From Pseudovirgaria hyperparasitica (Eukaryota): 32,179 nucleotides of DNA. Each line of letters opens with the position of its first letter. Position 1 is the first letter of the stretch. The notes under the pieces are model-generated. The model did not search any database, was not told the origin of the DNA, and saw only the letters and a program-made list of their open reading frames with translations. Location: assembly GCA_010093815.1 (NCBI GenBank), contig ML996600.1. The stretch is one strand, 5' to 3'. Position numbers and translations under genes: made by a program. Of the stretch, positions 10,431 through 27,318 are shown piece by piece.

Positions 10431-11380
10431 GTGTCTCTACACTCATCTAAACTGATAGACGACTGCTTCATACCTTTACACCTACCTAAGCTTATGCGAC
10501 ATGTCTGGATACCGTGTATTCTCTTCAAAGAGGGCCCTCATACTGAAAACGACGACCTACGCGATCCTGATATCATTCTAGCGGAACACAAGAGACGGAC
10601 ACATCAACCGCTATCGCCAAACTGTGAGAAGGTAGAGCTTCCTGGGTTTCCAGTTCCTGTTCTTAGATATAGGCCGGAAAACGCTGTCTATACGGGATTC
10701 CTGGTTGTAGGAGGGGGAGGTGTGTACGATAATTCACATCTACATTCAAAATACCATGCGCATATGGCGAACTCCCTCATGTGCGAACTACTTGTACCTC
10801 AGTATCGTTCAGCGGTTCAGGAGCCCTTCCCAGCGAGCCAGAAAGATATTAGCGCTGCTTTAGACTGCTTTCTAGACTTATTCAGAGGACGAAAGACTAT
10901 ACTCATCGGTGAAGTACATGATAGCTATATAGATCTACCAGGCTAAGCTAACTGGTTATAAAGTCTTTCGGAGGGTCGCTCTTACATAATGCCTTATGTT
11001 GGACTAGATGCGATATCGAGTCTACTTCTCGGCTCGAAGAAAAAGACGAGGATAGGAACGCCGACCGTTTCCTTGCATTCTTCGATATAATCAATCCCAA
11101 TCAAGAGGCAGAGTCATAGTATGCTCAGTGCTCGCCCTCGGCACAGACCCTTCCAGGAAGCCTACCTCCGGCTCAATCTATTTATGCTGAAGCAGAGTGC
11201 ATCTCCCAAGATGTCGTGGCGATGCACCGGATGTGGCACCCTAGCTTAGTTGTTCTCACTCCGGTGCCGGATGTCGATCATGGCTTCCTATTTGGTGAAC
11301 AGGAGGGTGATTTACCGGAGACAGTAAAATTTCTGGCGATGTTTCGACACGGCCCGCCAAGACAGTTGGTAGAACCATGA
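10431..11380 (+). pseudogene. HSL-family alpha/beta hydrolase (Abhydrolase_3-like) with one intron and a premature stop
   Basis: VVGGGG (HGGG-like) and QYRSAVQEPFPA (YRLAPEHPFPA-like) are present. Removing intron 10914-10963 (GTACAT..GCTAAC..AAG) builds the nucleophile elbow GE|SFGG. After an in-frame TAG at 11117-11119 the same frame continues LPP..AEAE..D...PDVDHGF to TGA at 11378-11380. The true start is uncertain. Confidence 0.7.
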
Positions 11381-14300
11381 AGACCAGCGAGGTTGACCAG
11401 GACTGGGCATAAACTGGTAGCTTATGTCTTTGTCGCCGAACATGACCTTGAAGACCGATCTGACAATCCTTGTGTGTTAATAAGTGGGTGAGATTGCGGG
11501 GCAAGAGGATGTCGTGTATATGTCTGCATAGGCCTCTTAGCTATCGAGAAGGGATGCGACGGGGGCAAATTTAATCACCTGGAATTTGTGGGGCGCTACC
11601 GGTCTATCTTCCAATAGCTCGCTGAGTGTACACGTACGTAGCGAGTAGTGCGTACGGTTATATTGGCCCAGCCAGTTCTGTATCCTCTGATCACGGAGGA
11701 GTGGTCCCTTTAGAAGGTATGATGACCGTCGAGGGCTCGGATGTGCGGCTACTTCGTACGTAGCTCTAGGCTCTTTGAGCTGTGAATGGCTCTGCCTAGA
11801 TACTGGTATCTTTCGTTTGATACTGGTGGACCTGCCGCTCCTTAAAATCATCACGATATATAGTTCGTCCACAACAGTGGCATAATGTGAGACTTAATAT
11901 AATACTCTGTTCAGGGAGATATCTTTTTAACACAGGCACGTGAATTCTAGACGCGCGCGAGAGCAACACATCTAGATATCTCAATCTATTTTCGTTCTTC
12001 CGCACCAAGCCCAGCCAACTCGGCATCTCCGCCTGCATCAGGTGGCCAATGGAATCTCATGGGATCAAAACTACGGCTGAGTTGCAGGCATTCGACCCCT
12101 TAGTCTCGCCCTAGATCTTTTGGGTACCAAGTTTCAATGGTGCGCATCTACAAGTCCGCTGAAATCTCGAATCTTTCGAGTCCGGGCACAGGTATATTCC
12201 ATCCCAACAGGTCGTCCAACTCTGCCTGCTTTGCGCGTGCATCCCAGATACCGACCACACACTGCGCTATGCTAGAAGGTCGGCTTCTTTTCAATTCGCT
12301 CCCCGATCAAGCCACCTCGCCGGGTCGGCTTTGCTAGCCAGTGACCTACTCTTGTCTAACGTCTTTGAAGGGGGGAGATCTACAACAGCTCTTGATGCCT
12401 CTCATACATTAATTACAGCAACGCCAATACTGTCATGGCTCGGCGAGACTATGAGTCTGACGAGAATCACGACATAGGATAACATGCTTATGTTCGCGTG
12501 GCCGATAATCCTCTGGACGCATATTAATCGAGTACCCACGGTCTATAAATCTTCACGAGACTTTGGTCATGACACTTACGTTGTCTTGCGAATATTGTCG
12601 GTAGGTCAGGCTAGATCTGCAGACCTTCTCGATGTTAACTAAGTCATAGCGCTCGAAAACAGAAGTGCAGTCCAGAGCAACCGCAATGTGCAGCATGCCT
12701 TAAAATTCAAAAGAAGTGCACTTATCTTGGACGTAAAAGGTATCAACGCAAAAGGGTTTCACATTCCCATGTTCTCGACTACCCTTGGCAATCTTCATCG
12801 GAGCTATACTTTATAGCTCGGAATCCGAAAGGGCGGATGCCCGCACCATACCGTCCGGAACTCTTATCGATGAATACGTAGGTAGGAAAGGAAGTAAAGA
12901 TCGAAAGTAAGATTACTTCCAAGGAGTATCTGGCATACTTACGACCTGGCTGGGGTATCGATACCGAAGACTCAAAACATCCCAGCAGGGAAATCAATCA
13001 CTCGTGTGCACCGAATTGCGCACTCAAAAAGAAGCAAGTGCTCGGAGAAGAGTGTCTAGCGAGGTACTAGAGAAGAGCAGAAGCATCCCTGGCGACGAGC
13101 ATCCGGACACGCTGTAAATTATCAGACGGCAACCCTGCATCCGGAAAGGGACGCACCTCATTCGGGTAACCCGGGGCCTCGCTTATGGTTTCGCCTCTAC
13201 GCCCGAATAGGCAATCGACCTCAACGTTTACCATAAAAACGCCCTCCCTCTCACCGTCATCGTTTTTCCTTCTCAGCCTTTTCTCTCTATTCCTATCCCT
13301 CCGTCCATGCCCCTCTCACCTGCTCCAACTGCTCTCATTGGGCCTCAACGAATCCTCCATCAGGCATTTTTGCAAACCCCGCCGCCGCCTCATCGCCGCA
13401 CTGCCTCCTTTCGCCCTATCATTTCACTCCTATTCAGGCACTGATGTCCAGCTTTTCGTGCCATGACGATTGCGGATGCGGAAAGTAAGTTTCAGCTCAC
13501 ATTCGCACTCGTTCAGCGGCCCCTCTGCTTTCTATTACTATGGCTCTCGTACGTACACTCTCGCTGTTCGTTTTTCTTCGCTGCATGCTCTCCTCCTTCT
13601 CTCGCTAAATGCTTGCTCACCTCTCGCCAGTGACGGCTACAGTTAAGGGGCGAAGCGCTCTACCCGCTGCATAGCCATACCCGTATGCGGTCTTACGAAA
13701 CCTTTTCCCTGCTCCGGGCTTGCCGATAGTGTTTCCTGCACCCTTTCCTATCCCTATTTTGAGCGAGCAAATGCGTGGCTCACACGCTATCGTCTCAGCC
13801 CTGGCACGGCTACATTGCGCCCCGCCCCTTCAGTCGAATACGCAGAACCAATCCTTCAGGCAGTGACGTGGACATTCACATGCATGGCACACTGATCAGC
13901 ATGATACTCCACCTCGCATGATGCATACGGTGTTGTAACATTAAAATGCAACCAAAAGGGGGCCGACACCTGAAATCTGCCAGCTGATAGCTCGGGGATG
14001 GCCGCAGGCGTGCCACAAAAGGCAAACGAAGTTCCGAAGTCCAGTCACCGGACCATGAAGCGCCGTCGACGGATACCACAGATTCATGGGTTATTTGGCA
14101 CAGACTCATCTTATGGGAGAGGGTGCTTGACGATCGAAGAAGAAGCTAGCGATCGGTGGTTTCATTCGAGGTGATATGGACACCTGGACAGCTGAAAGAC
14201 GCCCAAGGCGCCTAAGACCAGGTCACAGTGACTGTTTTCTAACCAATCGCTGGATGAGCTAGGCTGATTTTTGATACTACGAGTCCATCTACGCCGCTTG

Positions 14301-14561
14301 GTAGCGTGATACGAGTGTCTTTTCAAGGCGCTGGTGCTGACAAGCATTGAGCCCGCCCGCCTGCCCCTGCAGAGAGTGCCTTGCGTTGCTCGCTACGCCC
14401 CTTACAGTCATTTCCACAATAGATGCGGTATTAATGCAGGTTCCTTATTCTTAGGCAACCATGTCGACCGCAACATATAAAGCGACGCCGCTCAGTCTGG
14501 GGAGAGGATTACTCGTTCAGACTCCTCGTAGTTAGAGAAGTTACTAGATCGCCACTTCACA

Positions 14562-15330
14562 ATGGCGTCTTCTTGCAGCATCTCTTTATTAGCCCCTTCG
14601 TTTCCTATAAAAATTGTTCCTTACGATCCTTTAGCGCCCAAGCCCAACCCGAAATCCAAGAGCAAAGCAAAGGCGAAAATCAAGACAGCCGAGCACAACC
14701 ATTCCGAAACCGTCTCCTTTAAAGACCGTGGAGAGTGGTTTGATATCGACGATTTCCCAATGCCAGATTCCAATGCATCGCTCTCTCTTAATCCAGGAGT
14801 GCACCCTCGGTTCGAAGTTGCAGTCCCTTCCGGCTCGCCACATCAAGGTATTACTCACCCACTGAACGTTACAAGCCGATAGAACTCCGCTAATATATGG
14901 ACGTAGATGTCGTCGGTGGAGTTGGCGCTGCCTTCTTACCGGACGAGCCAGAGCACTGCCAGTCCGGCCAGGAATCACTTGACGATGGAGGGACAGGCAA
15001 CGCTACTGATGTCACGAAGACGAATTCGGCTACAAACGAGTTGCTTGGACGCAGCCCAGGTAAGTATATGGGTAGATCGTGGTGCCCATTTACTGATTAG
15101 CGATAGAATTTCCATTAAATTTAGAGGGTGACGTAGCCGAAGATCACAGTATAATGCACGTTGAGCCCAGCGACAGAGCGTCAGACTACCAAGCGAACGG
15201 TTACAACGAGGCTGCTGGCACTGAAGGATACCATGCCATACAGTATAGCGATCCCGACACAGTTGGCATGCGCGCTCTCTCCGTAGAGGATATGGAAGTT
15301 GTGCGTCATAGTGAGTAATATCCTAGTAGA
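14562..15330 (+). other. Probable upstream exons (possibly disrupted) of the Myb-domain gene
   Basis: ATG 14562 has a good context (CACAATGG) after a TATA-like CATATAAA (~14474). Splice donors GTAAGT at 15060 and GTGAGT at 15311 are present, but a stop at 14880-14882 and a frame change prevent a clean model. Confidence 0.3.
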
Positions 15331-15479
15331 ATTAAGGAGCCCATTTTGACGTCTTCAAAGAGAGACCACCAGCCGAGGATGAACCACTCTTTAGCGATAT
15401 TGGCGTAACAAGCGGACCGCCAATAATACGCAAACGAACGCACTCTTTATCTACTGATACGATAATCTCCCCAGCAGAA

Positions 15480-16691
15480 GTGGTGGATCTTACGTCGAAA
15501 CCGGAGCTGGAAGAACGTCGTTTAGCGAAGCGGCGAAGGCTGGCTAAGCAGCGGGTAGAGAACCTCATACTCGATCCTGTATCCATGCCCAAGTCAACGC
15601 CTTTGCCAAGCCCTAGCAGCCAAGTTCCCTCTCCTAGAGCCAGCAACGGTCCTAGACCTGATTTTCCAGAGTGTAACGACAAAGGCGATGGTGCTGAATC
15701 CCCAGGCCTTTACTCCTCAAGACAATCCATCTCTCCTTTTGAAGGAACAGTGAGCGAACAAGATATCAATCCGGATTCAGACAGGCGTGAGAAGAGTAGA
15801 AAAGGCAGACGTAGTGAAGTTGGGGAAAGCCATAGGGACGAACTCAATCAGGTCGACGTGTCCTACGGAGCTTCAGCGACACCTCCTCAGCGACATAACC
15901 CTAGCAATCGTTCGGTCCAGGAGAGACCGCGCGGTCGACCACAGACTCATCTTAAACCACAGAATGGGAGCACAGTCTTTAGGAAGACATCACGACAACT
16001 AACATCACCCCCATCACAACAGCTATCTGGGCCAAGAGCGGATAGCACAGCACGGATCAGTCGGATCGGTCCCCCGCGAACCTTTTCCACAGGAGCAAAG
16101 GCAGCATATGATTCTAGTATCTACCGCGGAACCAGCGACTACGAGTTAATGGATATTGCGCATTACTATTGCGACGTACCGAATGACTCGCCTATTATTA
16201 CAGCAACCGTCTATTGTGCCGACGTAATGTCAGCATTGTATGCAAAGTCATCAGCGCTTAGATGGAACTTGCTTGGTAACAAAGGCGAAGTCATCCGAAC
16301 GATTAAGTTATCATCAGATTCATGGTTGGTAATAGGATACCGGCATGACGATTGCGGTGCGCCAAAATTATGTAGCGGTCGAGGCTCGATGCAGCGAAGC
16401 ACGGATAGGGAGACTGGCCGCCACAGTAATGCCATCAACTATGACGCCGTCCATCCAGAAACATACGGAAACGAGAAGTACGAGGATGAAGATGAAGACG
16501 TGAGCGACAATGGCTATATGCTCTCAGGCAAACGAACACATGTACCGTGGAAAGAGTCGGACGGACAGCGCTTACTGTCGTACAAGGACAAGATGGGCTT
16601 GGACTGGGATGACATAGTTTTTCGTTTCCCAGGTCGGTCGGTGGGCGCCGTAAAACTCCGCTACTACACATTGCACAAGAAGGATTCGTAA
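15480..16691 (+). CDS. Last exon of a low-complexity protein with a C-terminal Myb/SANT domain
   Basis: 403-codon open frame ending in KRTHVPWKESDGQRLLSYKDKMGLDWDDIVFRFPGRSVGAVKLRYYTL (W...L...W..I...FPGRS...K.RY, the Myb/SANT signature), preceded by an acidic patch. Confidence 0.75.
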   Translation: MVDLTSKPELEERRLAKRRRLAKQRVENLILDPVSMPKSTPLPSPSSQVPSPRASNGPRPDFPECNDKGDGAESPGLYSSRQSISPFEGTVSEQDINPDSDRREKSRKGRRSEVGESHRDELNQVDVSYGASATPPQRHNPSNRSVQERPRGRPQTHLKPQNGSTVFRKTSRQLTSPPSQQLSGPRADSTARISRIGPPRTFSTGAKAAYDSSIYRGTSDYELMDIAHYYCDVPNDSPIITATVYCADVMSALYAKSSALRWNLLGNKGEVIRTIKLSSDSWLVIGYRHDDCGAPKLCSGRGSMQRSTDRETGRHSNAINYDAVHPETYGNEKYEDEDEDVSDNGYMLSGKRTHVPWKESDGQRLLSYKDKMGLDWDDIVFRFPGRSVGAVKLRYYTLHKKDS

Positions 16692-17536
16692 GGCTATTGC
16701 GATGTCCTCGACCTACCACTTCCCACCAAGATCGAACTCTCGCCTTGTTGAGGTTGGAGCATTTACGGGTGAAAAGGAGCGTACGGTGGATGCTAAGCTT
16801 TGCTATCTCGTTTTTACTAGATTATGCATAGACTTGGCGCAAAGAGTTATATAACTCCGTCCCACTTCGTCGCTCGTCTCTCTTCAGGTTATGTCGATTT
16901 TGATTAGTTTCAATAGTCGGGCATCTTCACGGTGCTGCCATCTGCCTCTAGGGATTCCTGCTTGAGATCTGGACTTCTTTCTATAGCCTTTTGTGGCATG
17001 ATGCAAATCCCTGGAAATGTTAGGCAAAGCTCGGCTACCAGAAGTTCTATGAATAACGGAGGTCCCGATTCCAGACCCCTGAGGGTGCCAACGGGGTCCG
17101 AAACCGGCCCCGATGCCTAGTCATCCCCTGTCATCGTTTAGTATCTATAGCTTAGTATGGCAGTTGTTCGCTCCTCTACCAACAGGAACTGTTTCTGTAA
17201 GTCGAGCACTCTCCCCATAATACCGCCGAGGATGCGAACGTGAAAGGTTCTTGTGGAAGCACAACGGCTCTGGAGCCATCACTTGCAACTGCATTGAAAA
17301 AGTTTCTTCTCTGTCAAAGCGCCCGCGCCTGCCATTGCCTGACAGCTGCTTTAAAACGACCTTGCGGCGCCAAGTAATGCGTAGAGCTAAATTTAGTCGA
17401 TGAATCAGACTAATCAGCGCTCGTTTACTGGCGCCGATAGAAGTGTGCTCGCCATCTGGGCCAATAAGGCTTGCGGGAATAACGTCGATACTAATCATCA
17501 GCCTTGGCGTCAAGTGCTGTTAGTCCCTATCCTCCA

Positions 17537-17668
17537 TGTAGGAATTTAGGTAGATTTTACGTGGTAAACTTGATTGCCCGTTCTATCTAGTCTACTTATC
17601 TACTATATATACCTAGCCTACGCTGAGTAAGATTTGAGTAATGGGGATTACCTAATATGAATCCCACA
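17537..17668 (-). repeat. 3' LTR (132 bp)
   Basis: TGTAGGAAT...ATCCCACA on the plus strand, identical to 26612-26743 except C17651 vs T26726. It is adjacent to the PPT. Confidence 0.97.
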
Positions 17669-17680
17669 TCTTCCCCCTCC
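17669..17680 (-). other. Polypurine tract
   Basis: Minus-strand GGAGGGGGAAGA lies immediately 5' of the 3' LTR. Confidence 0.9.
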
Positions 17681-17936
17681 TGATTATACGAGCTCCTGCG
17701 AGGCGTCAAAGACGATTGACGGAGTCTAACTCATATAATAAAGAGAGGTAGGCGTGTAAAATCTCTTCAACGCTAGGCCATATCCAGTAACACGTCGCGT
17801 AAGGGGGGGTGGTCCGAGCTTGTTTTGGCGCTGAATAGTCACCTTCACCATTGACGTATCCTGCCAACTTCAACCTCACATTACTTGACCATTTCGCCTT
17901 TTTCTTGACCTTTTTCTATACCAAACTCGTTTGACA

Positions 17937-20179
17937 ATGTCTGAAAACACTGCTGAAACTCCTGCGCGCTCAGAAATTACCCCAATTGATGTTGTGATCT
18001 CAGGTATGTGAACTTCAGCTTCACCTTTTCTTTTTAACTTGACCTTCCTACAGCGGACATGGTTATAAATGATGACCTTCGTCATGCCTTTTCGCGAGGT
18101 GGGATAGACGAGAGGTCGCTTGACGACATGATGGCAGAACATGCCCGCGCTCCCGATAGTAGGTCAAGTTCTTTAGTAGTTCTAGCCTAGGCTGACCTAT
18201 ACAGTTCGTGAGAGCTATTTAGAGATGGCTCATGGCTACCTGTATCCACGGGGTCCTTGGGGTTCGCCATTTTTCCGCAATCCAGGCCTAGAAAACGAGG
18301 CTTCGAATCAACTGAATGAAGAGAACAACCAGGCCCTTGGAGCTGAGGTTCCACAGGTTAAGATCTTGGTCCCTGTGATTCCGCAGGAGTTGGCAATCGC
18401 CATTGACGAGACTGTTCCTGAAACAGAAGGTAGTTTCGCTCAGTCCTTCTCTTTTCAAAAACTTTATTAACCTGTGTGGTTCCTATAGGTCAAGTTATAG
18501 ATCACGATTCTGCGCCAACTGATCTTGACGAGCCTTTTGAAACTCCTACCAAGCCTAACAGGTTCGAGAATCTTTCAGATGACTCTGACGATGTCTTTGA
18601 TCCTGAAAAGGAAGGAGCTTTGAGCTCTGGGCTATCAGACCTTGACAGCGATGCGATAATGGAAATTGACGAGCTTGATGAAGCAGTTGCTCTCAAGGCA
18701 GGCAAGAAAGGTGAATCTCTAAGCCTTAATTGGGTTTTCAATTTCCTAATATCATCATAGGCCTTCGTCCTAAGGCACCTAGGACTCCTAAGAAGGTCCG
18801 CAAGGCCGTGAGGACTCTGTCAAAGTTGTTTGACAGCCCTAAAACTCGCTCCATGACTTCCTCATTGGCCTTAACAGGTCTCGGAAGTCCTAGCAAGATC
18901 GTGAAGAAGGCTCCTATCAAGCGTAAGGGGTCTGCAGCTTCTCGCAAGGTCAGCGCGGCATCAGAGACTGCGGCAACTGAACTTGACAGCTATGGCGGTG
19001 CCGAGATCATGGTGAAAGGCCGGTCAGGCCTCAGTGTTCATCCTGACTACTACTTCTTTTCGGGGAAATCGGCAGAGTTCGCGCAGTGGTTGGCCCGTCG
19101 GCGTAGGTCTTCTTCCTGTTAATTGCCTTTGACGGTCAGCTAACTTGACCTAGGGGAGATGTTCTCGGATCCTCCCATCTCAGTGCCGTTCTGCCAGGAA
19201 TTCGTTGATGGCTTGATCAAGGCGTATACTGGCGGTCAACATGCCTCGATTCCGAAGGATCTGCTTCCGTTTTGTATGACGGATAAGTTTGATGACTGCT
19301 GCTATCCCCAGGATATCGCAGCAACAGTAGGACAGATCTTTCGGGATCCCGAGAAACGACTGGATGGGAAGTATCCGTATACCATTCCTGCCGTCCTAGG
19401 CATGATGGCTCGTGGCGCGTTCTGGCACTTCGGTGATAGCGCCTGTGGATCCTGTTCTGCCGGCAAAGGTGTCTTCAAGGAGTGTGTGCAGCTTTTTCCC
19501 AATGGGTTCCTACTGTTTGAAGGTACTTGTTTGAATTGTTTCCACCAAGGAAATGGGAAATTCTGCAGCATGTCACGTCGTAAGTCACTCCCTTATGTTG
19601 TCAAAGGCCTTTGACGGGGCTAATTGTGTATCCACAGTATACCGGGGCGAGCGTAACGTCATTGAGAAGCTTCAGCGTGCCGAACAGTCTTCTTTTGTGG
19701 AAAAGACCAAGTCCACTGGCAGGTATTCGGCTGCCCAGCTTCGTCAAAAGAAGTTGTCAGGTCTCAAGGAGACCAGGTCAAACTCTGCGGCTGGTCCTTC
19801 GCTCGTGAGTCAGGTTTTCTATCTCGTGTAATCTCTAGCTAATTAAAAGGTCACAGCCATGATAGAATGGATGTATCACGGCGGTCCAGAGGTTCTCGTT
19901 CCTGGCTATGATGATATCATGCCTCCCGACCCGAGTATCATCCCCACTCGTCCTATACAGGACATAGATGACGAAGGTCTTCCGCTTGACGAGGCTGTTG
20001 AGGGTTGGTTTGCTCTTCCGACAAACGCGTTTGGCGAGGCTGGTCGTACGCCTCAAGGGTTGCCATGCCGGTTCCTGATCGAGGATGGCATGCCCAAGGA
20101 GAGTAAGAAGGTCCTGGTGAAGTTCGCGAAGAATATGAACTTCAGTCGTCGTAAATCCGCTTTGAGGGTCCAGGGCTAG
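17937..20179 (+). CDS. Antisense accessory gene inside the retrotransposon, 8 predicted exons, ~627 aa, with a Cys-rich DUF3716-like module
   Basis: Predicted exons are 17937-18003, 18054-18158, 18205-18429, 18489-18710, 18761-19102, 19154-19579, 19638-19804 and 19850-20179. Introns are 45-59 nt GT-AG, most with GCTRAY/CCTAAT-type branch points, and they join the six short plus-strand ORFs into one frame. Exon 6 has ACGSCSAGKGVFKECV...GTCLNCFHQGNGKFCS. Intron 7 boundaries are ambiguous. Confidence 0.85.
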
Positions 20180-20448
20180 GTCGACGACGTCTCTTTTGTG
20201 TTGATACCCCTTCTCCTTGAGCGTCAAAGGGCGTTGACGGCTTTTCTTTTGTGTCTGGTTGGGTTGCGGTTCTTAGGTAGCGATTTTAGACTTGAATAGT
20301 ATCATCACAAGTCCACATCTTCTTTCTTTGACCTCCTGGTGATTCCTATGGCTCGTCAACCTTCGTTGACGGCCATGTGTATGAGTAATGAGTGAATGGG
20401 AGATCAATAATGGTGTGTACATAGGAGATATTCAAGGAAAGACTGAGG

Positions 20449-23400
20449 TTAGTTGTAATCTAAGCTTTCTTGTAACAACTTAGAAGGTAATATCTTTTTC
20501 CTTAGGGAGTACCTCTCTCCCTCTGATCTGTCAACTCGTCTTGACGCGCTGGCTACAGCCGCTTGGGTTTCTCTATTGCGTTCATCCGTATAGGATCGCT
20601 TTCTTTTCCGCATATGAGGTTTGCTTTCTACAAGGTCCCTTATAGGGACGTCCGAGTCTATTAGAGGTTGTTCGGTCACTTCGTCAACCTCTTTTGGCAC
20701 TTCTTCAGTGTCTGTATCTATATCCATACTCGTAGGATTCTCATTTTCAGTTTGGACATTCTTGTCTAAGTCCATTCGTATATCATCAAACTCGTCTCCT
20801 GAGCTTGTTTCTTCAGGCAATTCATCCTGTATCGGTTCTGCAGTGGCTTCCTCTGCCATGTCAATCTCGTTTGACGGGTCATCTGCTGTATTCTCGTTTA
20901 TCGTTTGGGCTTCCTCTGCCCTTGGAGCATCGTAGCTTCTTTCGATGTTGACTATCGGCGGTTGCATCGCTCCGCTGTTCTCACCTTGTTCTTCCGGTGT
21001 GTCTCTTGGTTCGTCAAAGACGATTGGCACTGGTGCGGCCGACGTAGCTGTAGTAGCTTTTTGTTTACGTCGATTTTTCGCATCGGTAAGCCTGATTTGT
21101 CGCGCGATATTTGCGTCTATCGAGCTCTCCCCTACCAAGAACGAACGTACGCCCTCGTACGTCAACTCTCGTTGACTCCGTAGCTGTTGCAGCCGGTTCC
21201 ACTCCTTTTTAGGAAGGGAGGATAGAGTCGTCCAGTGTAGGGTCGGTTTTTCTTTCTCTAAAACCTTCTCGATGTCTGGTGAGTGAGGTGCCACTTGGTT
21301 CCGGATTTCCTCGGACATCTGTGAGTCAATTTCCTGTCTAGTCCAGAAGTCCTCTAGCTTGTCAATGCCCCGGGCTGTTATTAATCTATTGCCGTGTACA
21401 AGGTGCCGTAAGATACGCCCGTTCGGTGTTTCGAGGGCATATGTTCCCAAAGGATGTTGCATGTGAACCTTGTATGGACCTAAGTAGTTCGTTTTGAACT
21501 TCGTTTTCTGCTCGTTCTTTAGCAAAACGATTTGACCGACAGGTAGTCGCGCCTGATCTTCAGGTTTGAGTCGAGTCGGGTCTATGAGGTCTCGGCGGGC
21601 GGCTTCCACAAGCAGCTCACTAAGCGCTAGTGTTCTGGCGTGTTGGACTTTCTTGACTCGCTTGATGAGTTCGTCAAAGGACATTGACTCATCCTTTTCC
21701 CCAGGAATGTTCCCTGGTAAGTTGGGGTGTTGTCCATACACCAGATAATATGGACTAACTCCCATACTTCTATGACGGCGAATCCTTGTGGCGAAAACGG
21801 CGGCTGGTAGGTACGTGTCCCAGTTTGTCACCAGCTCGCCTATACACATACGGGTAAGTATGCCTCCTAATGTTCCATTGAGGCGCTCGACTTTCCCGTT
21901 TGTGCGAGGGTGATAAGGGGTTGTGAGCTTGTGTTCTGTCTTGAGGATGCGTAGCAATGCGCCAACGACTCTTGACAGAAACTGTTGACCATTGTCTGAG
22001 GTTAGTGCGGCGGGAGGTCCGAAGTCTATGAAGATCTTCTCATAAATGAACCTTGCGACGGACTCCGCAGTCGCCTCAGGGACTGCCTGTGCAATAGGCC
22101 ATCCCGTTGTGTAGTCAATTGCTGTTATCACCCAGCTATTGCCGTTGTGTGTGGTGGGGAGTACGCCTATAAAGTCGATACCCCATTCTTCAAAGGGTGC
22201 TCGGCGTGCGACCCTATGAAACTGTCTCTCATGTTGTGGATTTGGTGGCACTCGTTGCGCCAATTGACATTGACGGCAGTTGCGAGCGACCACTTCCACG
22301 TCTTTCTTCATTCTAAACCACCAGCCTTGTTTTTCTAGGGCTCCTAGTAGTCCGGGCCACATGAAGTGACCGAATTGACGGTGTATTGTTTCTACCAGCG
22401 AAGTACGGTATTGTTCGGGGATGTACGGCGCTGAGTTTTCCGACAAATCTTCTTGACTATCATCAAAATCCCATAGCTTGTGTCGTAGTTTACCTTCGTG
22501 GTCCAGGCGTAGCCGGGACAGGATTTCGGGGGAGACTTTTAGCACATGCTCTGTCGGTTCCGCTCCTTTAAGGAACTCAATGATTTGGGCGACGAGAGTG
22601 TGTTCGTCAACCTTAGTTGACGGCATTGCGGAGATCTCGCCTTGAAAGTCCGGCCTCCTACTGATGGCGTCAGGTACCACTGCCCTGGATCCTGGGCGAT
22701 ATTTTATGTCTAGATCGAAGCTTCCGAACTCATCAATCCATCTACCTACACGGCCTCCTTGTTCCTTGGCAGTCTTGAGGAACTGTAGGCTATGGTGGTC
22801 GGTGAGGATCGTGGTCTTCTTCGTTCCTAGCAAGTATCCCCAAGTGCGTAGGGCGTGTTTGATGGCAAGAAGTTCTTTTTCGTGCACTGGGTAGTTGAGC
22901 TCGGCGCCGTTGAGCTTCCTCCCGTCAAACGCGATTGGCTGATTCTGCTTGTCGGCGTCTTCCTGGCAGATCACCATACCGATCGCGTAGTTGCTCGCAT
23001 CCGTTTCGATGCAGAAGGGCTTTGTTTCATCTGGCTGAGCCAGGACTGGCTCGGAACATAGGGCATTCTTAAGCGTTTTGAAGGCAAACGCTGTTGACAG
23101 TGTCCATCTAATGGGCCTATACTTCTGCTTTCGAATGAGCGGGTCTGCTTCTTTAAGAAGGTCTGTCAAAGGTGCCGCGATGCTTGTAAATCCCCTAATG
23201 TACCTTCGGTAGTAGTTCGCTAGGCCCAAGAACTGTCGAACTTCGCTAACGTTCGTAGGTTCCGGCCATTCGCGGATGGCCTGAATCTTATCCTTCATAG
23301 GACGGAGTTGTCCTCGCGAGACGTGGTGTCCGCAGAAGTCAACTTCGGCCTGGCCGAAGCTACACTTCTCCGGATTGGCGAGCAGGCGATATTCGCGGAG

Positions 23401-24804
23401 TAAGGCAAGTACTTTTGACAGCACTCTTGCGTGTTCCTCCATGGTTTCGGAAAAGATAATGATATCGTCCAAGTATACAACCACGGATTTGTGTAATAGA
23501 GGTTGAAGGACTCTGTTCATCATCTTTTGGAATGTGGCAGGTGCGTTTGACAGACCGAACGGCATTACCTTGAACTCGTATTTGCCGTAGATCGTGTTGA
23601 AGGCGGTTTTCGGGACGTCTTCATTGTCAACACGTACTTGCCAGAATCCTGAGGTCAAATCCATCTTGGTAAACACGGTTGACTGGCCGAAGGCACGTAG
23701 GCACTCATCAATGCGTGGGAGAGGTGTCGTATCTTTACGCGTGAGTGTGTTGAGTGCCCTATAATCGATACACATTCGCCATTTGCCTCCGGGCTTGGGC
23801 ACGAAAAGTACTGGGCTGCCCCAGGCACTTCCTGATTCTTGAATCAGGCCTCGCTTGATTAGCTCCTGTATCTGTCTCTGTTGTTCTGCGATCTGTTCTA
23901 AGGAGAGACGATAGGCTGCGTTGTTGATAGGTCGGCCATCTCCTGTGTCTATTTTGTGGTCCCATTGTCTTGAAGGAGGTAGCCCTTCGGGCAGGTCTTC
24001 CTTGAAAACGTCCTTATACTTCGTCAAAACGGGTTGCAGTATTGGGTCAGGTGCATGCGGTACAGGAGGAGTGTCCTTTCTAACGAACCACATTACACCC
24101 TGTTCACAGCCGTTCGGGTATTGTTTCCGTGCTTGACTAGCAGTGAGGACGTTTAGCACTTGTTCTCCTTGTAAGTCAATGTCGATTGACGCAGGAATCC
24201 CTTTTAGAAGGTACTCCTTGGTTCGTCCTCGGGCTGCTGGCTTCTTAATTACTAGGGAATGAGACCTCCATGAGATATCGGGGTCCCATTCGTAGAGCCA
24301 TTCGTATCCTAGAATCAGATCGTAGCCTTTGAGGTCGAGCACTCTCGCGGAGACTTCGCAAGTGAAGCTTTCCATGCGTAGGGGGATCTTCACAACTTCT
24401 CGACTTGTCATGAGGGGTCCTGACGGAAGTTTGACACGTATTGCGGGAGCAGGTTGTGGCACCAGCTTCAGACGCCTGGCAACCTTCGTTGACATATACG
24501 TTCTATCAGCCCCACAGTCGATGAGTACTGAAACCTTCTGAGGGTGGACTTCTCCTGCGTAAGCTTTGAGTTCTAGCAACTGTCTGCCGATGGAGTTTAG
24601 TTGACAGAGGCGGTCGTCGACGGCGTGCGTCAACTCCTCTTGACACTGGCGAGCACTCTCTAGCGATTCGCAAAGCGCGTTAATGTGCTCGTAGTCCCAT
24701 GTGTTTACCTCCTTTTCATCGGAATTGTCAGTGCAGAAGCTCTCTTCGTCGCTCGTGGTGTGTTCTGTGTCCACTACGGGCGACTGGCTTTTGGGGGCTC
24801 TTCG
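20449..24804 (-). CDS. pol: Pol polyprotein (aspartic protease, RT, RNase H, integrase with GPY motif, acidic tail)
   Basis: Motifs are LIDCGAD (PR); WRMCIDYR, MPFGL and YLDDII (RT); ETDAS and HEKELLAI (RH); HRQFGH..CRQC, GIDF, SDNG and VERLN (IN); and YLGPYKV. The frame opens after TGA at 24807-24805 and has no ATG before the protease active site, so it is probably reached by frameshifting. Confidence 0.97.
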   Translation of the reverse strand, partial: RRAPKSQSPVVDTEHTTSDEESFCTDNSDEKEVNTWDYEHINALCESLESARQCQEELTHAVDDRLCQLNSIGRQLLELKAYAGEVHPQKVSVLIDCGADRTYMSTKVARRLKLVPQPAPAIRVKLPSGPLMTSREVVKIPLRMESFTCEVSARVLDLKGYDLILGYEWLYEWDPDISWRSHSLVIKKPAARGRTKEYLLKGIPASIDIDLQGEQVLNVLTASQARKQYPNGCEQGVMWFVRKDTPPVPHAPDPILQPVLTKYKDVFKEDLPEGLPPSRQWDHKIDTGDGRPINNAAYRLSLEQIAEQQRQIQELIKRGLIQESGSAWGSPVLFVPKPGGKWRMCIDYRALNTLTRKDTTPLPRIDECLRAFGQSTVFTKMDLTSGFWQVRVDNEDVPKTAFNTIYGKYEFKVMPFGLSNAPATFQKMMNRVLQPLLHKSVVVYLDDIIIFSETMEEHARVLSKVLALLREYRLLANPEKCSFGQAEVDFCGHHVSRGQLRPMKDKIQAIREWPEPTNVSEVRQFLGLANYYRRYIRGFTSIAAPLTDLLKEADPLIRKQKYRPIRWTLSTAFAFKTLKNALCSEPVLAQPDETKPFCIETDASNYAIGMVICQEDADKQNQPIAFDGRKLNGAELNYPVHEKELLAIKHALRTWGYLLGTKKTTILTDHHSLQFLKTAKEQGGRVGRWIDEFGSFDLDIKYRPGSRAVVPDAISRRPDFQGEISAMPSTKVDEHTLVAQIIEFLKGAEPTEHVLKVSPEILSRLRLDHEGKLRHKLWDFDDSQEDLSENSAPYIPEQYRTSLVETIHRQFGHFMWPGLLGALEKQGWWFRMKKDVEVVARNCRQCQLAQRVPPNPQHERQFHRVARRAPFEEWGIDFIGVLPTTHNGNSWVITAIDYTTGWPIAQAVPEATAESVARFIYEKIFIDFGPPAALTSDNGQQFLSRVVGALLRILKTEHKLTTPYHPRTNGKVERLNGTLGGILTRMCIGELVTNWDTYLPAAVFATRIRRHRSMGVSPYYLVYGQHPNLPGNIPGEKDESMSFDELIKRVKKVQHARTLALSELLVEAARRDLIDPTRLKPEDQARLPVGQIVLLKNEQKTKFKTNYLGPYKVHMQHPLGTYALETPNGRILRHLVHGNRLITARGIDKLEDFWTRQEIDSQMSEEIRNQVAPHSPDIEKVLEKEKPTLHWTTLSSLPKKEWNRLQQLRSQRELTYEGVRSFLVGESSIDANIARQIRLTDAKNRRKQKATTATSAAPVPIVFDEPRDTPEEQGENSGAMQPPIVNIERSYDAPRAEEAQTINENTADDPSNEIDMAEEATAEPIQDELPEETSSGDEFDDIRMDLDKNVQTENENPTSMDIDTDTEEVPKEVDEVTEQPLIDSDVPIRDLVESKPHMRKRKRSYTDERNRETQAAVASASRRVDRSEGERYSLRKKILPSKLLQESLDYN
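24748..24795 (-). other. Predicted -1 ribosomal frameshift signal (slippery C_CCA_AAA plus downstream hairpin)
   Basis: Heptamer 24795-24789 is in the gag frame, and a -1 slip gives CCC AAA AGC in the pol frame. Four nt downstream lies the stem GTCGC-c-CGT-a-GTG/CAC-c-ACG-a-GCGAC (24784-24748), which contains the gag stop. Confidence 0.75.
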
Positions 24805-26051
24805 TCAAAGACGCTTGCCGTGTCTCCCTCTGCGGTGACGTGGGCCAGTTTGCTTGGAGTCGGATTTTCGGGGCAGAATCTTGAGATGTGTCCTGTTTTC
24901 TTGCAGATAAAGCATTCTCGAGTCTCGTTAAGCGTTCTTGACGAATTTCCTTGGTATCTACCACGGCCTCGGCCTCGACTCCAGCCTCTGCCGCGGCCTC
25001 GGCTGTTCCACTGGCGCTTTACGAAGGCGTGGAGCTTGCCTTCGTCTCCAGAGAAGTCGCCTAGGTCATCATCGCGGGTGTATAAATCCTCAGGAGGCTC
25101 GAACTCTTCGGGTTCTTCGTCCTCGTCTGGATTATACATGGCATTAAGGCGATGATTAGCTTCCCGTCTGTGGTATTCGCTCTTGGAGTGGGTGTATAGG
25201 GCTTCTTCTAGCCTTTTTACCCATGGGCACCAGTCCCCTAGCATCTGAGGAGGAAAGGGCTGCTTTTCGATTTCTCGTTGAACCTCTGATTTGAGGGCAC
25301 TTAGTATCCTGCGTTGTATCTCGTATTCTGTAGGCATGGGTCGTAGTAGTCGAGCTTTCTCGACAATGACGTCGATGAGCCTCGAGGCAGACCCATAACG
25401 ATGTTGACTTAGGTTCTCCCATTCCTTTCGGCGTTGTTCTGGGCGATTGGTCGAGATGTACGTCTTGCGTATGACGTCTAGGAAGTCTCCTAGAGTTTGA
25501 GGACTACCCGGGCTATTACGGCCGCGTGCCTCCATGAGGCTACGCCAAAGGGTACGGACATGTTTTGAGGTATATGTCCCGCAGATTTGTAGTTTCTCAA
25601 AATCAGGTATAGCCTCTTGGCGTTCCACTGACTCTACGGTATTAATCCATTCCTGGATAGATAGGCACCATTCCTCGCAGGCGTCGTCCCTGATTTCTCC
25701 TGAGTATACTTCGGGGGCTCGAAGAGGGATGCGGCCTCTGCGTGGGGGCGCAACCGTTCCTGAGCGGCCGGGGTTATTGAGGAGGAGGTTGTCAAAGTCT
25801 CTTGCCAGTTCCTCCCGGGTGACGTGATCGTTCCTCACCTGTGACTCGAGTCGGTTGGCACATATGTTGATAAGTGCCACTGTACGAGCGTCTCCAGTGA
25901 GGTCTCTCGTGGCCGGATCGGCATCGAAGAGGGCGTTAAGCACGTCAACGGTTATTGACGGTGCGTTACGAGCGCGTCCTGTGCTCTGGGGAGCGGTTGC
26001 TCCATCCATGGGGACGTCGCCGTCACGATCAGGGTTCTGGGGAAGAGACAT
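24774..26051 (-). CDS. gag: Gag protein with RG-rich segment and CCHC zinc knuckle
   Basis: 425-aa ATG ORF directly upstream of pol, with PEVYSG, a capsid-like helical region, RGRGRGWSRGRGRGR and CFICKKTGHISRFC (CX2CX4HX4C). Confidence 0.95.
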   Translation of the reverse strand: MSLPQNPDRDGDVPMDGATAPQSTGRARNAPSITVDVLNALFDADPATRDLTGDARTVALINICANRLESQVRNDHVTREELARDFDNLLLNNPGRSGTVAPPRRGRIPLRAPEVYSGEIRDDACEEWCLSIQEWINTVESVERQEAIPDFEKLQICGTYTSKHVRTLWRSLMEARGRNSPGSPQTLGDFLDVIRKTYISTNRPEQRRKEWENLSQHRYGSASRLIDVIVEKARLLRPMPTEYEIQRRILSALKSEVQREIEKQPFPPQMLGDWCPWVKRLEEALYTHSKSEYHRREANHRLNAMYNPDEDEEPEEFEPPEDLYTRDDDLGDFSGDEGKLHAFVKRQWNSRGRGRGWSRGRGRGRYQGNSSRTLNETRECFICKKTGHISRFCPENPTPSKLAHVTAEGDTASVFDEEPPKASRP

Positions 26052-26600
26052 TTTGGTACAACTTGTTAGAGACAGGGGAATTCTGAGGTGGTGATCATCT
26101 TCCGAGTTGGAATTTGGTCGTCAACTTATGTTGACGAGTGGTTGGGAGGTACATTGCGGGTACAGGGAGCGTCAATGAAAAAAAATTCGTTTCCTTAGTC
26201 TTTGCTCGTTTTGTGATATGTCACTACCCGTTGTGACTATTGAACTGGTCGTCAAAGTTTGTTGCCGTAATTTGATTCTCTGAATAGTTGATGTTTCGGC
26301 AGGGATATCCCATCGTAGGCATGACTCGTTCTTATGGCGCGCCTGTATCCGCTGAGTTGTTGGAATTGTCGTCAAACGTTGTTGCCGTAATTTGTTTTTC
26401 CGGGACTATGGCATGTCCCTTCGTGGTAGTGTTTTTCCTGTTGGACTATAGGTTCCTTTGCCGTTGTCTTCGGCGGAGGTGTTTAATGTCGTGGGTGTCA
26501 ATTGCGTTTGACGAGTTGCCTCGTGTAAGGGGAGATATAGCTACCCCTTAGGAGGGGTCGCCGAGGCGACGGCCTCCCTAGGAGGACAAAAACCAGCTTT

Positions 26601-26609
26601 CAGCTACCA
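26601..26609 (-). other. Primer binding site, tRNA-iMet type
   Basis: Minus-strand TGGTAGCTG starts 2 nt after the 5' LTR. It is complementary to a tRNA 3' end ...CAGCUACCA and shares TGGTAGC with the iMet PBS of Ty1/Ty3. Confidence 0.75.
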
Positions 26610-26611
26610 GA

Positions 26612-26743
26612 TGTAGGAATTTAGGTAGATTTTACGTGGTAAACTTGATTGCCCGTTCTATCTAGTCTACTTATCTACTATATATACCTAGCCTACGCTG
26701 AGTAAGATTTGAGTAATGGGGATTATCTAATATGAATCCCACA
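26612..26743 (-). repeat. 5' LTR (132 bp)
   Basis: Direct repeat of 17537-17668 (131/132 identical), containing a TATATATA box and followed on the minus strand by the PBS. Confidence 0.97.
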
Positions 26744-27318
26744 TGAGGTAGCAGAGATGGTCACATGACAGAGCACTTTGGACGTCGATTTAGGCTAGTG
26801 GGCCCTGCGCTGAATCTACTGCAGGGAAAGTGAGACCGTTGATCGCCTACTGTAGCCAAGACGCAGGGGCTAGATTTGCGCAGCCCGCAGATTCTCCGAT
26901 AAGGCTTGCGCTGTCTAAAACGGTATATTAGACCCTGAGAAGCTCAACTCAAGAAATTCGTAGGCTCTGGCTTTGAATTAGGATTTGAGCACCGCGAAGA
27001 CAGATCTTGGACTGCAGCTCTCGGGATAGACTGTTCATACGCCAATCTACTGTGCATTGTAATTCTAAGTACACTGCTTAGATATAGTGGATGTTATCGG
27101 TCTCCCAAAGCAAGCCGTCGGTAGCAACGATTCCTTAATTCAGAGATTATAGGCTACGCAGAAGGTTCACGCAGATAAGATTAAGCGTGGGTATAGCTTA
27201 GACCGTTAGCTATCTATCCCGAGAGTATCATGCTCAGGCTGACGTTGTGGAATTTATTATCTGGTGTTGAAATTCTGCATCTCGGTACACAGGGAATCTC
27301 GCGACGTAGGGAGGGACG

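Follow-up and report, generated by a model that had tools for sequence, protein, structure and literature searches.

Why does a fungal retrotransposon carry some 34 copies of one short palindrome through its internal region, and which protein would read them? The question is raised by a 32,179-nucleotide stretch of Pseudovirgaria hyperparasitica DNA (the window), in which positions 17537-26743 on the minus strand hold a Ty3/Gypsy element of 9208 bp. The element is an intact, young retrotransposon, with LTRs of 132 bp each that differ by one mismatch. As the first-pass annotation had claimed, its reading frames are open (gag, 425 aa; pol, 1441 aa; and, once spliced, an accessory gene of 519 aa), and a related copy does lie about 4 kb away. 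No target-site duplication was found at the element borders, and an internal repeat search detected no repeats besides the LTRs. The accessory gene lies between pol and the 3′ LTR, on the strand opposite to gag-pol. The features are as follows.

17537-17668, minus: 3′ LTR (element sense), 132 bp, TG...CA, direct repeat of 26612-26743 with 1/132 mismatch, at 17651
17669-17681, minus: polypurine tract adjoining the 3′ LTR, with a purine-rich sense strand right beside it
17937-19862, plus: accessory gene, antisense to the element, 8 exons, 519 aa, seven GT..AG joints in contigs
17937-18003, 18054-18158, 18205-18429 and 18489-18710, plus: accessory exons 1-4
18761-19102, 19154-19579, 19638-19804 and 19857-19862, plus: accessory exons 5-8
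19438-19572, plus: DUF3716 (PF12511) Cys-rich domain in exon 6 (Pfam score 32.4 bits where the cutoff is 22, E 9e-8)
19859-20179, plus: downstream ORF, 106 aa, its ATG and the accessory TGA overlapping as ATGA
20449-24774, minus: pol, with protease, RT, RNase H and integrase (Pfam) and a C-terminus of about 470 aa without assignment
24774-26051, minus: gag, open ORF whose CCHC knuckle is weak (zf-CCHC E 0.0011, short of the Pfam cutoff)
26052-26611, minus: leader, 560 bp, with 4 motif sites (exact and one-mismatch searches)
about 26593-26609, minus: primer-binding site, the sense strand starting TGG two bases past the LTR
26612-26743, minus: 5′ LTR (element sense), direct repeat of 17537-17668
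30898-32179, minus: second family copy, partial, internally deleted and running off the window end (sequence comparison with copy 1)

The element contains 15 exact GTCAA-N6-TTGAC sites against 0.011 expected (mean of 2000 first-order Markov simulations, maximum 1), and the excess persists for one-mismatch sites (19 against 0.28) and for the relaxed form GNCAA-N6-TTGNC (33 against 0.12). When half-site spacers of 0-19 bp were tried, only a spacer of 6 occurred; one additional pair has a spacer of 20. The flanks are symmetric, with C or T at position 0 in 31/34 sites and G or A at position 17 in 30/34. The full motif is an 18-bp palindrome, Y-GTCAA-N6-TTGAC-R, in which position 2 of the half-site is tolerant. 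It is present throughout the internal region (gag, pol, accessory exons and introns, leader and 3′ gap) and absent from the LTRs.

The first-pass annotation had described the element as tiled with a private motif, an observation that is confirmed and proves stronger than first described. The sites it named at 17705, 19600, 20223, 20355, 26120 and 26497 are exact, those at 19118, 26251 and 26371 have one mismatch each, and the "weaker" site ahead of the accessory ATG corresponds to 17920. Privacy holds as well: the 21.6 kb of non-element DNA in the window has no site, and the left 17.5 kb flank has neither an exact nor a one-mismatch site. Outside the element, the relaxed form occurs five times, always within the second copy. 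Among 80 related Gypsy loci (506 kb), there is no exact motif, nor is any locus tiled with a spaced palindrome of a comparable kind. In a check of co-occurrence, distant relatives (28-44% pol identity) lack both the accessory gene and the motif, a result compatible with self-recognition but not diagnostic of it. The sites are listed below.

17705-17720: exact, upstream of the accessory gene
17920: two mismatches, before the accessory ATG
18392-18407: one mismatch
18514-18529: one mismatch
18819-18834: exact, accessory exon 5
18972-18987: one mismatch
19118-19133: one mismatch, accessory intron 5
19600-19615: exact, accessory intron 6
19743-19758: one mismatch
20223-20238: exact, convergent 3′ gap
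20355-20370: exact, convergent 3′ gap
20530-20545: exact, pol C-terminal extension
20683-20698: one mismatch
20860-20875: exact, pol C-terminal extension
21013-21028: one mismatch
21161-21176: exact, pol C-terminal extension
21673-21688: exact, pol
21961-21976: one mismatch, conserved integrase sequence
22259-22274: one mismatch, conserved pol sequence
22442-22457: one mismatch
22606-22621: exact, pol linker, retained in copy 2 at 30902
22924-22939: one mismatch, copy 2 identical
23083-23098: one mismatch, copy 2 identical
23404-23419: one mismatch, copy 2 differing solely at half-site position 2
24175-24190: exact, pol
24478-24493: one mismatch
24629-24644: exact, pol N-terminus
24804-24819: one mismatch
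24927-24942: one mismatch
25791-25806: one mismatch
25944-25959: exact, gag, also in copy 2 (32044), the spacer there having 3 changes
26120-26135: exact, leader
26251-26266: one mismatch, leader
26371-26386: one mismatch, leader
26497-26512: exact, leader

A new feature is the regular placement of the 34 exact and one-mismatch sites, which keep to a lattice of about 158 bp whether the DNA is coding or not. The best period is 157.9 bp (Rayleigh R 0.67, reached by 0/2000 random placements), and nearly the same value is obtained from exact sites alone (158.2 bp) and from one-mismatch sites alone (157.8 bp). One-mismatch sites fit the lattice set by the exact ones (mean cosine 0.67) and sit on it as well as these do (R 0.69). 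Moreover, 26 of the 33 gaps deviate by no more than 30 bp from a multiple of 158, where 12.7 are expected to (p 3e-6). The densest stretch, seven consecutive occupied nodes at 20223-21161, is at the 3′ end of pol, where site density is high because coding constraint is weak. Off the lattice are the leader sites, which are spaced by 120-131 bp, and a small number of others. No tandem repeat was found beneath it, and GC content has no clear 158-bp signal. Shuffling the gaps reaches the same fit in 4.9% of shuffles, so the long-range phase mostly follows from local spacing near one, two or three times 158 bp. Fungal nucleosome repeat lengths of 161-172 bp are given in the text drawn on from bioRxiv 10.1101/2021.04.16.439968, with two yeasts at 154 and about 165 bp. 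By this comparison, the period is in the range of fungal nucleosome repeats, roughly one site per nucleosome. In alpha-satellite DNA, CENP-B boxes likewise place a short protein-binding box at about nucleosome-repeat spacing, and they have been linked with phasing. Their periodicity stems from tandem monomers, whereas the DNA considered here is unique and largely protein-coding.

Three observations indicate that selection on the sites acts at the DNA level. Within pol, conserved segments hold the one-mismatch sites, whereas the exact sites are found where conservation is poor. The exact coding sites are read in two phases and encode unrelated peptides. All five homologous sites are retained in copy 2, and differences between the two copies affect 0/40 core positions as compared to 90/1191 elsewhere (p 0.043).

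The accessory gene offers a candidate reader. Contigs of two runs from a second study, X3 and X4, have all seven of its introns spliced, the DNA runs X1 and X2 have no such joints, and the frame is open up to the TGA at 19860-19862. The Cys-rich protein that the first-pass annotation had proposed is real, is assigned to DUF3716 by Pfam and is expressed. An acidic N-terminal half is followed by a basic NLS-like stretch and the DUF3716 domain, whose six cysteines are invariant or almost so across 16 sequences; no other Pfam family was found at E 0.01. The nearest relatives that a database of 1.84 billion representatives offers for the domain are distant, with 17 matches and E 1.3e-7 for the best of them. 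Its predicted structure (pLDDT 73) resembles none of the solved folds, and sequence comparison gives the family no relative of known structure, so nothing structural marks DUF3716 as a DNA-binding domain. The gene bears seven lattice sites and is therefore a long-standing component of the element. For the 106-aa ORF downstream, neither a family nor a look-alike was found.

Precedents exist for several parts of this arrangement, here as described in the portions of the cited sources drawn on. Anti-silencing VANC proteins are encoded by VANDAL elements, Mutator-like DNA transposons of Arabidopsis (PMC5735166; PMC10398659). Like the accessory protein, VANC is transposon-borne and dispensable for transposition chemistry, and it binds short family-specific motifs dispersed over its own element family (PMC5735166). 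VANC changes the chromatin of its own element family, an effect that is the proposal here by analogy. VANC belongs to a class II plant element, whereas here we have a fungal LTR retrotransposon and a DUF3716 protein; its targets are non-coding and often tandem repeats, while the present sites, known from sequence alone, are palindromic, run through coding sequence and are spaced by a lattice of about 158 bp instead of being tandem repeats. In Zymoseptoria tritici, the IS3EU-type DNA transposon REP9 holds two DUF3716 genes, and when one of them, REP9-1, was overexpressed, the remaining three genes of REP9 were induced (PMC8232023). REP9 is thus a fungal transposon with a DUF3716 accessory gene, and REP9-1 behaves as would be predicted here. 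REP9 differs in being class II with TIRs, in the length of REP9-1 (193 aa against 519 aa), and in that the portions of PMC8232023 drawn on describe no binding motif, the word "motif" being absent from its main text. Plant Ty3/Gypsy lineages (Retand, Grande and RIRE2) also have an extra gene in this place and orientation, an antisense additional ORF past pol and ahead of the 3′ LTR, and the encoded proteins are suspected to be nuclear or DNA-binding, with a proposed regulatory role (PMC11963269). They have a TRP28 domain instead of DUF3716 and often tandem repeat arrays between pol and the 3′ LTR; the portion of PMC11963269 drawn on describes no element-wide private palindrome or nucleosome-scale lattice. 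Finally, recombinant Neurospora crassa NCU05718, a protein with no annotated DNA-binding domain, directly binds double-stranded TTAGGG repeats (PMC4650311), and its orthologue in Fusarium, PSC58, belongs to the DUF3716 family (PMC10776026). NCU05718 binds a specific dsDNA repeat and is tied to DUF3716 by this orthology only; it is a host gene with a telomere repeat as target, and in these portions its DNA-binding region is never mapped to DUF3716.

Taken together, the element looks like it has its own built-in system for marking and controlling its chromatin. The best explanation overall, to which we assign a probability of roughly 40%, combines private dsDNA sites, the element's own DUF3716 protein as their putative reader and a role in chromatin. 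DNA-level self-recognition is made more plausible by the lattice running through coding sequence, by mismatched sites that lose an RNA hairpin while keeping the lattice, and by DUF3716 membership given the NCU05718 and REP9-1 precedents. Judged from their anatomy, the palindromes are very probably dsDNA sites for a dimeric protein on the integrated, chromatinized element. That this protein is the putative DUF3716 reader is about an even bet. One binding event per nucleosome repeat would set or exploit a phased nucleosome array, which in turn would keep the element recognizable and competent for transcription, and the sites at 17705 and 17920 would let the accessory gene regulate itself. This chain, from per-nucleosome binding and a phased array to VANC-like trans-activation or anti-silencing with autoregulation of the accessory gene, is a tentative proposal, less likely than not. 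The first-pass annotation had arrived at a candidate self-recognition system too, a reading that is partly supported; its element-encoded Cys-rich protein and element-only motif stand, while its RIP-related remarks find no support, differences between copies 1 and 2 having no CpA bias.

Two other accounts of the motif do not involve a DNA-binding protein. The sites could form hairpins in genomic or antisense RNA and serve as dispersed packaging, dimerization or stability signals, and indeed all 15 exact sites can fold on either strand (stems of 5-8 bp, dG −3.9 to −10.6 kcal/mol). Conservation, however, is on stem sequence and not on pairing. Among the 19 one-mismatch sites, dG exceeds −1 kcal/mol at 10 when the sense strand is folded and at 8 when the plus strand is, with lattice placement unaffected, which favors a dsDNA site for a dimer; only 3/19 (sense) or 5/19 (plus) mismatches, read from the site list, are G-U compatible. 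With no Rfam match and no obvious RNA meaning for a period of about 158 nt, we regard RNA hairpins as highly improbable. There is a negligible probability that the sites arose by chance, are an artefact of base composition or coding, or are left over from an ancient tandem repeat: simulations never exceeded one exact site, the coding sites fall in two reading phases with unrelated peptides, and neither tandem repeats nor internal repeats other than the LTRs were found.

If a dimeric protein binds the sites, it may still be one other than the DUF3716 protein. Another element product (the pol C-terminus of about 470 aa, the 106-aa ORF, Gag or integrase) might read them and possibly organize, import or tether new cDNA. 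The pol extension and the 106-aa ORF both lack a family match, and the densest lattice run falls at the pol 3′ end. That density, however, is accounted for by weak coding constraint, no DNA-binding domain was detected in the extension or the ORF, and naked cDNA would not predict one-per-nucleosome spacing, so that this reading is improbable. A host protein, for example a dimeric transcription factor or else a barrier or general regulatory factor, deserves more weight and is still rather unlikely. In this scenario, the DUF3716 protein acts otherwise, and sites have accumulated for nucleosome phasing and open chromatin, or for tethering. Motif anatomy and lattice demand merely some dimeric dsDNA binder, fold and sequence searches provide no link between DUF3716 and DNA, and barrier factors setting nucleosome phasing are discussed for fungi in the part of bioRxiv 10.1101/2021.04.16.439968 drawn on. 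Word depth in the DNA runs also hints at many family relatives without the accessory gene: in X1/X2 DNA contigs of at least 80% likeness, pol reaches a summed word depth of up to 2468 per bin compared to about 310-460 in 6/7 bins of the accessory gene and about 270-310 in unique flank, contig word depth not being equivalent to copy number. Against a host factor are the lack of sites in neighboring DNA and in the Gypsy loci, although few host sites of 16 bp would be expected in any case, as well as the element's own nuclear-type Cys-rich protein with its acidic region, the lattice sites in accessory exons and introns, and the activation of its own element by a transposon-borne DUF3716 protein reported for Zymoseptoria in the text drawn on from PMC8232023.

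Returning to the DUF3716 protein as the putative reader, the weakest step is the sign of its effect, anti-silencing versus repression. In RNA-derived contigs, whose depth is not usable for ranking genes, mean word depth of the spliced accessory contig is 755 (X3) and 412 (X4), and that of gag-pol pieces is about 8 (X3) and 2-6 (X4). If real, abundant accessory mRNA together with scarce gag-pol RNA would fit a repressor as well as an activator.

The element and its surroundings can be described by three features in the window.

17537-26743, minus strand: the element, an intact LTR retrotransposon
17937-19862, plus strand: the accessory gene, antisense to gag and pol, 8 exons, 519 aa
30898-32179, minus strand: copy 2, a partial second copy of the family

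The motif GTCAA-N6-TTGAC is present in 15 exact copies in the 9.2-kb element, versus 0.011 on average and never more than 1 in Markov simulations, and when spacers of 0-19 were scanned, 6 was the sole one that occurred. Another 19 sites carry one mismatch (0.28 expected). These mismatches are confined to half-site positions 2 (n = 17) and 3 (n = 2); the G, both A's and their mirror bases are invariant in 34/34 sites. Because of the tolerance at position 2, the relaxed form GNCAA-N6-TTGNC captures 33 sites (0.12 expected). The flanks are mirror symmetric as well, with C/T before the site in 31/34 and G/A after it in 30/34 cases, and the unit is thus an 18-bp palindrome (YGTCAA-N6-TTGACR). The half-site centres are 11 bp apart, i.e., about one helical turn, as is typical of DNA-binding proteins that act as dimers. 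On the plus strand, GG follows the site in 9/34 cases vs 2/34 on the other side, an asymmetry too weak to interpret. The sites are found in every part of the element except the LTRs.

Sites in each part of the element
Upstream of the accessory gene: 1
Accessory exons and introns: 7
3' gap: 2
pol: 16
gag: 4
Leader: 4
LTRs: 0

The first-pass annotation had proposed that the element combines a Cys-rich protein with a dispersed, private palindrome. This proposal is confirmed and extended by the one-mismatch sites, their regular placement and the identification of a DUF3716 domain (see below). The sites that it had placed upstream of the accessory gene were recovered, an exact one 232 bp and a weak one 17 bp upstream of the ATG, as were those in introns 5 and 6. 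With respect to privacy, the 21.6 kb of the window that belong neither to the element nor to copy 2 contain no exact, one-mismatch or GNCAA-N6-TTGNC sites. As comparison loci we used the best 80 of at least 582 Gypsy relatives from metagenomes (5-sequence pol alignment; 28-44% pol identity, 506 kb). In these 80 loci there are no exact sites, no comparable tiling by any 5-mer spaced palindrome and no DUF3716 match in six-frame translation; the few palindrome families with 3-6 copies that they do contain sit in LTR-type repeats. Hence, across the window and the best 80 of the at least 582 loci, the motif is enriched on its own element and rare elsewhere. The closest pol relatives are metagenomic proteins with identities of at most 57%, and the nearest of them (P0018, 57%) lies outside the 80 comparison loci. 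Named relatives are from ascomycetes (Aureobasidium, 41%; Penicillium, 46%; Ascosphaera, 42%). A pol scan of viral contigs gave five pattern matches and no relatives.

The placement of the sites is periodic. Gaps among the 34 sites cluster at ~150, 310, 470, 630 and 790 bp, and the maximum of a Rayleigh scan (periods 60-400 bp) is at 158 bp (R 0.67). Among 2000 random placements in which sites were kept at least 100 bp apart, none attains this value at any period. The two disjoint subsets agree, the period being 158.2 bp (R 0.65) for the exact sites and 157.8 bp (R 0.69) for the one-mismatch sites; moreover, the one-mismatch sites land on the lattice set by the exact sites (mean cosine 0.67). 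Twenty-six of the 33 gaps are within 30 bp of a multiple of 158 vs 12.7 expected (p 3e-6), and 21 gaps fall in the range 120-185 bp. Sites fill 34/57 lattice nodes, none of which has two. Most sites are 0-30 bp from their node; the largest deviations, ~50-58 bp, are those of site 18392 and of two of the four sites in the leader. Shuffling the gaps attains the observed R in 4.9% of trials, and the long-range phase is therefore largely a consequence of a local spacing rule. GC content is without a clear signal at 158 bp (power 0.46 against a median of 0.18), its highest power, 1.11, being at 152 bp. In CENP-B-like satellites, the periodicity comes from tandem monomers. This is not so here, as Tandem Repeats Finder detected no repeat able to generate the lattice (its only finds were two short arrays with periods of 6 and 7), and a repeat search of the element gave no internal repeats apart from the LTRs. 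According to a preprint on fungal nucleosomes, repeat lengths are 161-172 bp in four filamentous ascomycetes; for S. pombe and S. cerevisiae it quotes 154 and ~165 bp, respectively (bioRxiv 10.1101/2021.04.16.439968). The lattice is the unexpected part of the system: it implies that selection has placed the sites in nucleosome register inside unique, protein-coding DNA.

On what level this selection acts can be judged from the coding sequence and from copy 2. In pol, exact sites occupy stretches that are unaligned among the five closest proteins, such as linkers and the C-terminal extension, and one-mismatch sites occupy conserved stretches, as if protein constraint capped the quality of the match. 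The exact sites in coding sequence are read in two phases and encode unrelated peptides. Copy 2 shares 1.3 kb with the element at 89-94% identity and retains 5/5 homologous sites. Differences between the two copies amount to 0/40 in the cores, 1/10 at position 2, 3/30 in spacers and 90/1191 elsewhere, which for the core gives p 0.043 in what is a small test. Collectively, these data indicate that selection on the sites is at the DNA level.

A palindrome could also act in RNA, where its two arms would pair, and the exact sites are indeed able to form hairpins (dG -3.9 to -10.6 kcal/mol). At the one-mismatch sites, the hairpin is absent in 10/19 cases on the sense strand and in 8/19 on the plus strand, and these sites are still phased as well as the exact ones. 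Most of the mismatches could not form G-U pairs, they are not consistent as to strand, and a search of Rfam gave no matches. The conserved feature is thus the sequence and not the pairing. Given hairpin-less sites that keep the phase, mismatches that G-U pairs would mostly not accommodate and the empty Rfam search, the sites are very probably double-stranded DNA sites acting in chromatin.

Copy 2 is itself a deletion derivative, in which sequence corresponding to 22602-23701 is fused to sequence corresponding to 25843 and beyond, with 3 nt in place of 2141 bp; in addition, 14 nt replace a 72-bp stretch. These deletions disrupt the 158-bp register. Its frame, which includes RT and RNase H, is still open over at least 401 aa, and its joints are also found in contigs from X1, a DNA sequencing run, and from X3 and X4, runs from a second sample and study, where their depth is above that of full-length gag-pol. 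The first-pass annotation had remarked on a relation to RIP. This remark is not borne out by the comparison of copies 1 and 2, in which the bases after C-to-T changes are A 7, T 9, G 6 and C 1, i.e., without CpA bias. Other family copies in contigs from X1 and the second DNA run, X2, differ from the present copy by C>T at 86-89, G>A at 102-110, A>G at 43 and T>C at 28-29 places, and the loose ends of these contigs are AT-rich. The excess of C>T and G>A together with the AT-rich ends suggests that older family copies have been degraded by deamination or a RIP-like process, with this copy intact.

The accessory gene lies between the 3' LTR, with its polypurine tract, and pol. Seven GT..AG segments are missing from the X3/X4 contigs and all seven are kept in the DNA runs X1/X2.

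Introns of the accessory gene, from X3/X4 contigs
18004-18053, plus strand: intron 1
18159-18204, plus strand: intron 2
18430-18488, plus strand: intron 3
18711-18760, plus strand: intron 4
19103-19153, plus strand: intron 5
19580-19637, plus strand: intron 6
19805-19856, plus strand: intron 7

The library kind of X3/X4 is unrecorded, and we take them as RNA-derived on the basis of these missing introns; on this reading the gene is transcribed and spliced. Six of the seven introns agree with the model derived from the sequence, the acceptor of intron 7 being the difference. A gene model with an AAG acceptor for this intron, which fused a 106-aa ORF to the gene, was dropped, as the contigs use the CAG at 19854-19856; with this acceptor the frame stops at TGA 19860-19862, giving 519 aa. 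The 106-aa ORF (19857-20179, plus strand) has its ATG at 19859, overlapping this TGA, and is on the same mRNA-derived contig, which in X4 ends near 20311. It has no family and no look-alike, and ESM Atlas returned nothing for it. Termination-reinitiation or a second isoform are possible routes to its expression. Upstream of 17300, the spliced contigs (X3, 9033 nt; X4, 6345 nt) extend for a further 3.7-4.3 kb, crossing the LTR and entering host DNA (~13600-17536), and the X3 contig also continues antisense to pol up to 22631. These long contigs could reflect read-through from the upstream gene or an assembly merge.

The Cys-rich part of the accessory protein is encoded by exon 6 and matches DUF3716 (PF12511; 32.4 bits vs a cutoff of 22, E 9e-8, profile positions 13-58 of 59), the sole Pfam family found on the accessory exons. 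In an alignment of 16 sequences (exon 6 and 15 remote relatives), the pattern C-x2-C-x9-C-x14-C-x2-C-x8-C is conserved, with C97, C110, C125, C128 and C137 invariant and C100 at least 90% conserved. The relatives of the domain are remote (17 matches among 1.84 billion representatives, best E 1.3e-7), and a word-index search with the DUF3716 alignment gave one match, which was known already. Zn2Cys6 clusters have six Cys in two C-x2-C...C units that hold two zinc ions, and they bind as dimers to spaced palindromes. The DUF3716 pattern resembles this cluster in form, with longer loops, which makes the cluster a lead; Pfam gave no Zn_clus match at E 0.01, and no solved fold or sequence gave a match. 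A 141-aa model (pLDDT 73.3; the domain-only model is poor, pLDDT 55.4) found nothing in the PDB at E ≤0.001 with Foldseek (best of 17 rows, E 2.9) and no Z ≥2 among 48,161 chains with VIA-align. A PDB profile search with the DUF3716 family had no matches at E up to 10, and ESM Atlas gave one sub-threshold lead for exon 6 (0.81). Outside the domain, residues 121-210 are acidic (26 D/E, 7 K/R) and residues 211-270 basic (18 K/R, 1 D/E).

Which protein reads the sites? The accessory protein is the sole product of the element with the look of a nuclear regulator, and since lattice sites are present within the exons of its gene and within introns 5 and 6, the gene is an old part of the element. Against this protein as the reader, depth in the DNA runs hints at many family relatives with coverage of pol and none of the accessory gene, although such depth does not measure copy number. 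In the literature, DUF3716 in fungal host genes is tied to telomeric DNA and sexual development and also occurs in at least one other transposon (PMC4650311, PMC10776026, PMC8232023). As a precedent in favour, recombinant Neurospora NCU05718 binds double-stranded TTAGGG repeats directly, without an annotated DNA-binding domain (PMC4650311), and the orthologue in Fusarium, PSC58, is assigned to DUF3716 (PMC10776026). We give the element's own DUF3716 protein about an even chance of being the reader. As to the direction of the effect, REP9, a Zymoseptoria tritici DNA transposon that is similar in protein family, is reported to have two DUF3716 genes; when one of them was overexpressed, the three remaining genes of that transposon were induced (PMC8232023), which is also a second precedent for the accessory protein as the reader. 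REP9 and the acidic region suggest activation or anti-silencing. The contig depths, which cannot rank genes, are high for the spliced accessory contig (mean word depth 755 in X3, 412 in X4) vs the gag-pol pieces (~8 in X3, 2-6 in X4); they point the opposite way or nowhere. The sign of the effect is therefore given with low confidence, and an anti-silencing function, taken by itself, is rather doubtful. The chain as a whole, from double-stranded DNA sites through a DUF3716 reader to anti-silencing, is plausible but unproven, with a probability of roughly 0.4.

Transposons are recognised by host silencing systems. To our knowledge, their self-recognition and self-protection are much less known, the VANC anti-silencing proteins of Arabidopsis VANDAL transposons being nearly the sole worked example. 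VANC is also closest in the putative mode of working, in that a spliced, expressed accessory protein is encoded by the element and the motif is concentrated on that element. Membership is not implied, since the two systems differ in element class, in protein family and in how the sites are laid out; the likeness is one of putative working. In gene layout, the plant elements Retand, Grande and RIRE2, with their antisense extra ORFs, are similar (PMC11963269). In the literature outside subscription journals, we found no description of a transposon with private binding sites through its coding sequence at nucleosome spacing. In the most specific scenario, the retrotransposon would write a private palindrome "barcode" in nucleosome register through gag, pol and the reader gene; its own DUF3716 protein would read this barcode, one dimer per nucleosome repeat, and would impose phased, silencing-resistant chromatin on copies of its own family only. 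This scenario is unlikely as it stands. If true, it would be without precedent as a chromatin-phasing system encoded by a transposon and as a VANC-like system in either fungi or retroelements, and the DUF3716 domain would gain its first function. As a fungal case, the element is compact, with one gene, an 18-bp site and ~34 positions, and it lets one ask whether nucleosome phasing over a transcription unit of 9 kb can be set by a sequence-specific factor or has to be followed by it.

The remaining features of the element fit a Ty3/Gypsy LTR retrotransposon. The LTRs have TG...CA ends and one mismatch between the pair, a primer-binding-site-like TGG is located 2 bases past the 5' LTR on the sense strand and a purine run (polypurine tract) adjoins the 3' LTR. 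The pol domains are in the order protease, RT, RNase H and integrase (Pfam, residues 74-160, 325-485, 557-683 and 785-969), followed by ~470 aa without a family match. Both gag (425 aa) and pol (1441 aa) are open, and the CCHC knuckle of gag is weak and under the Pfam cutoff. The pol frame is -1 relative to gag and overlaps the gag stop (24774-24777), which suggests gag-pol expression by frameshift. Unusually short LTRs of 132 bp go together with a long leader of 560 bp. Despite the otherwise young appearance of the element (1 LTR mismatch), a target-site duplication of 4-6 bp is absent, the flanks being CTCCA (17532-17536) and TGAGG (26744-26748); recombination between copies is a possible cause. 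A hexamer repeat, CGGCCT, is present in 6.7 copies within gag (24964-25003). The leader has an imperfect ~120-bp duplication (26245-26395) that holds the sites at 26251 and 26371, and a leader variant lacking 188 bp (26180-26367) is seen in X3 and X4 contigs. Upstream of the element, a host-like ORF of 403 aa (15480-16691, plus strand) has a weak Myb-like DNA-binding match under the cutoff (E 6e-4), and a fragment of an alpha/beta-hydrolase is located at 10431-10946.
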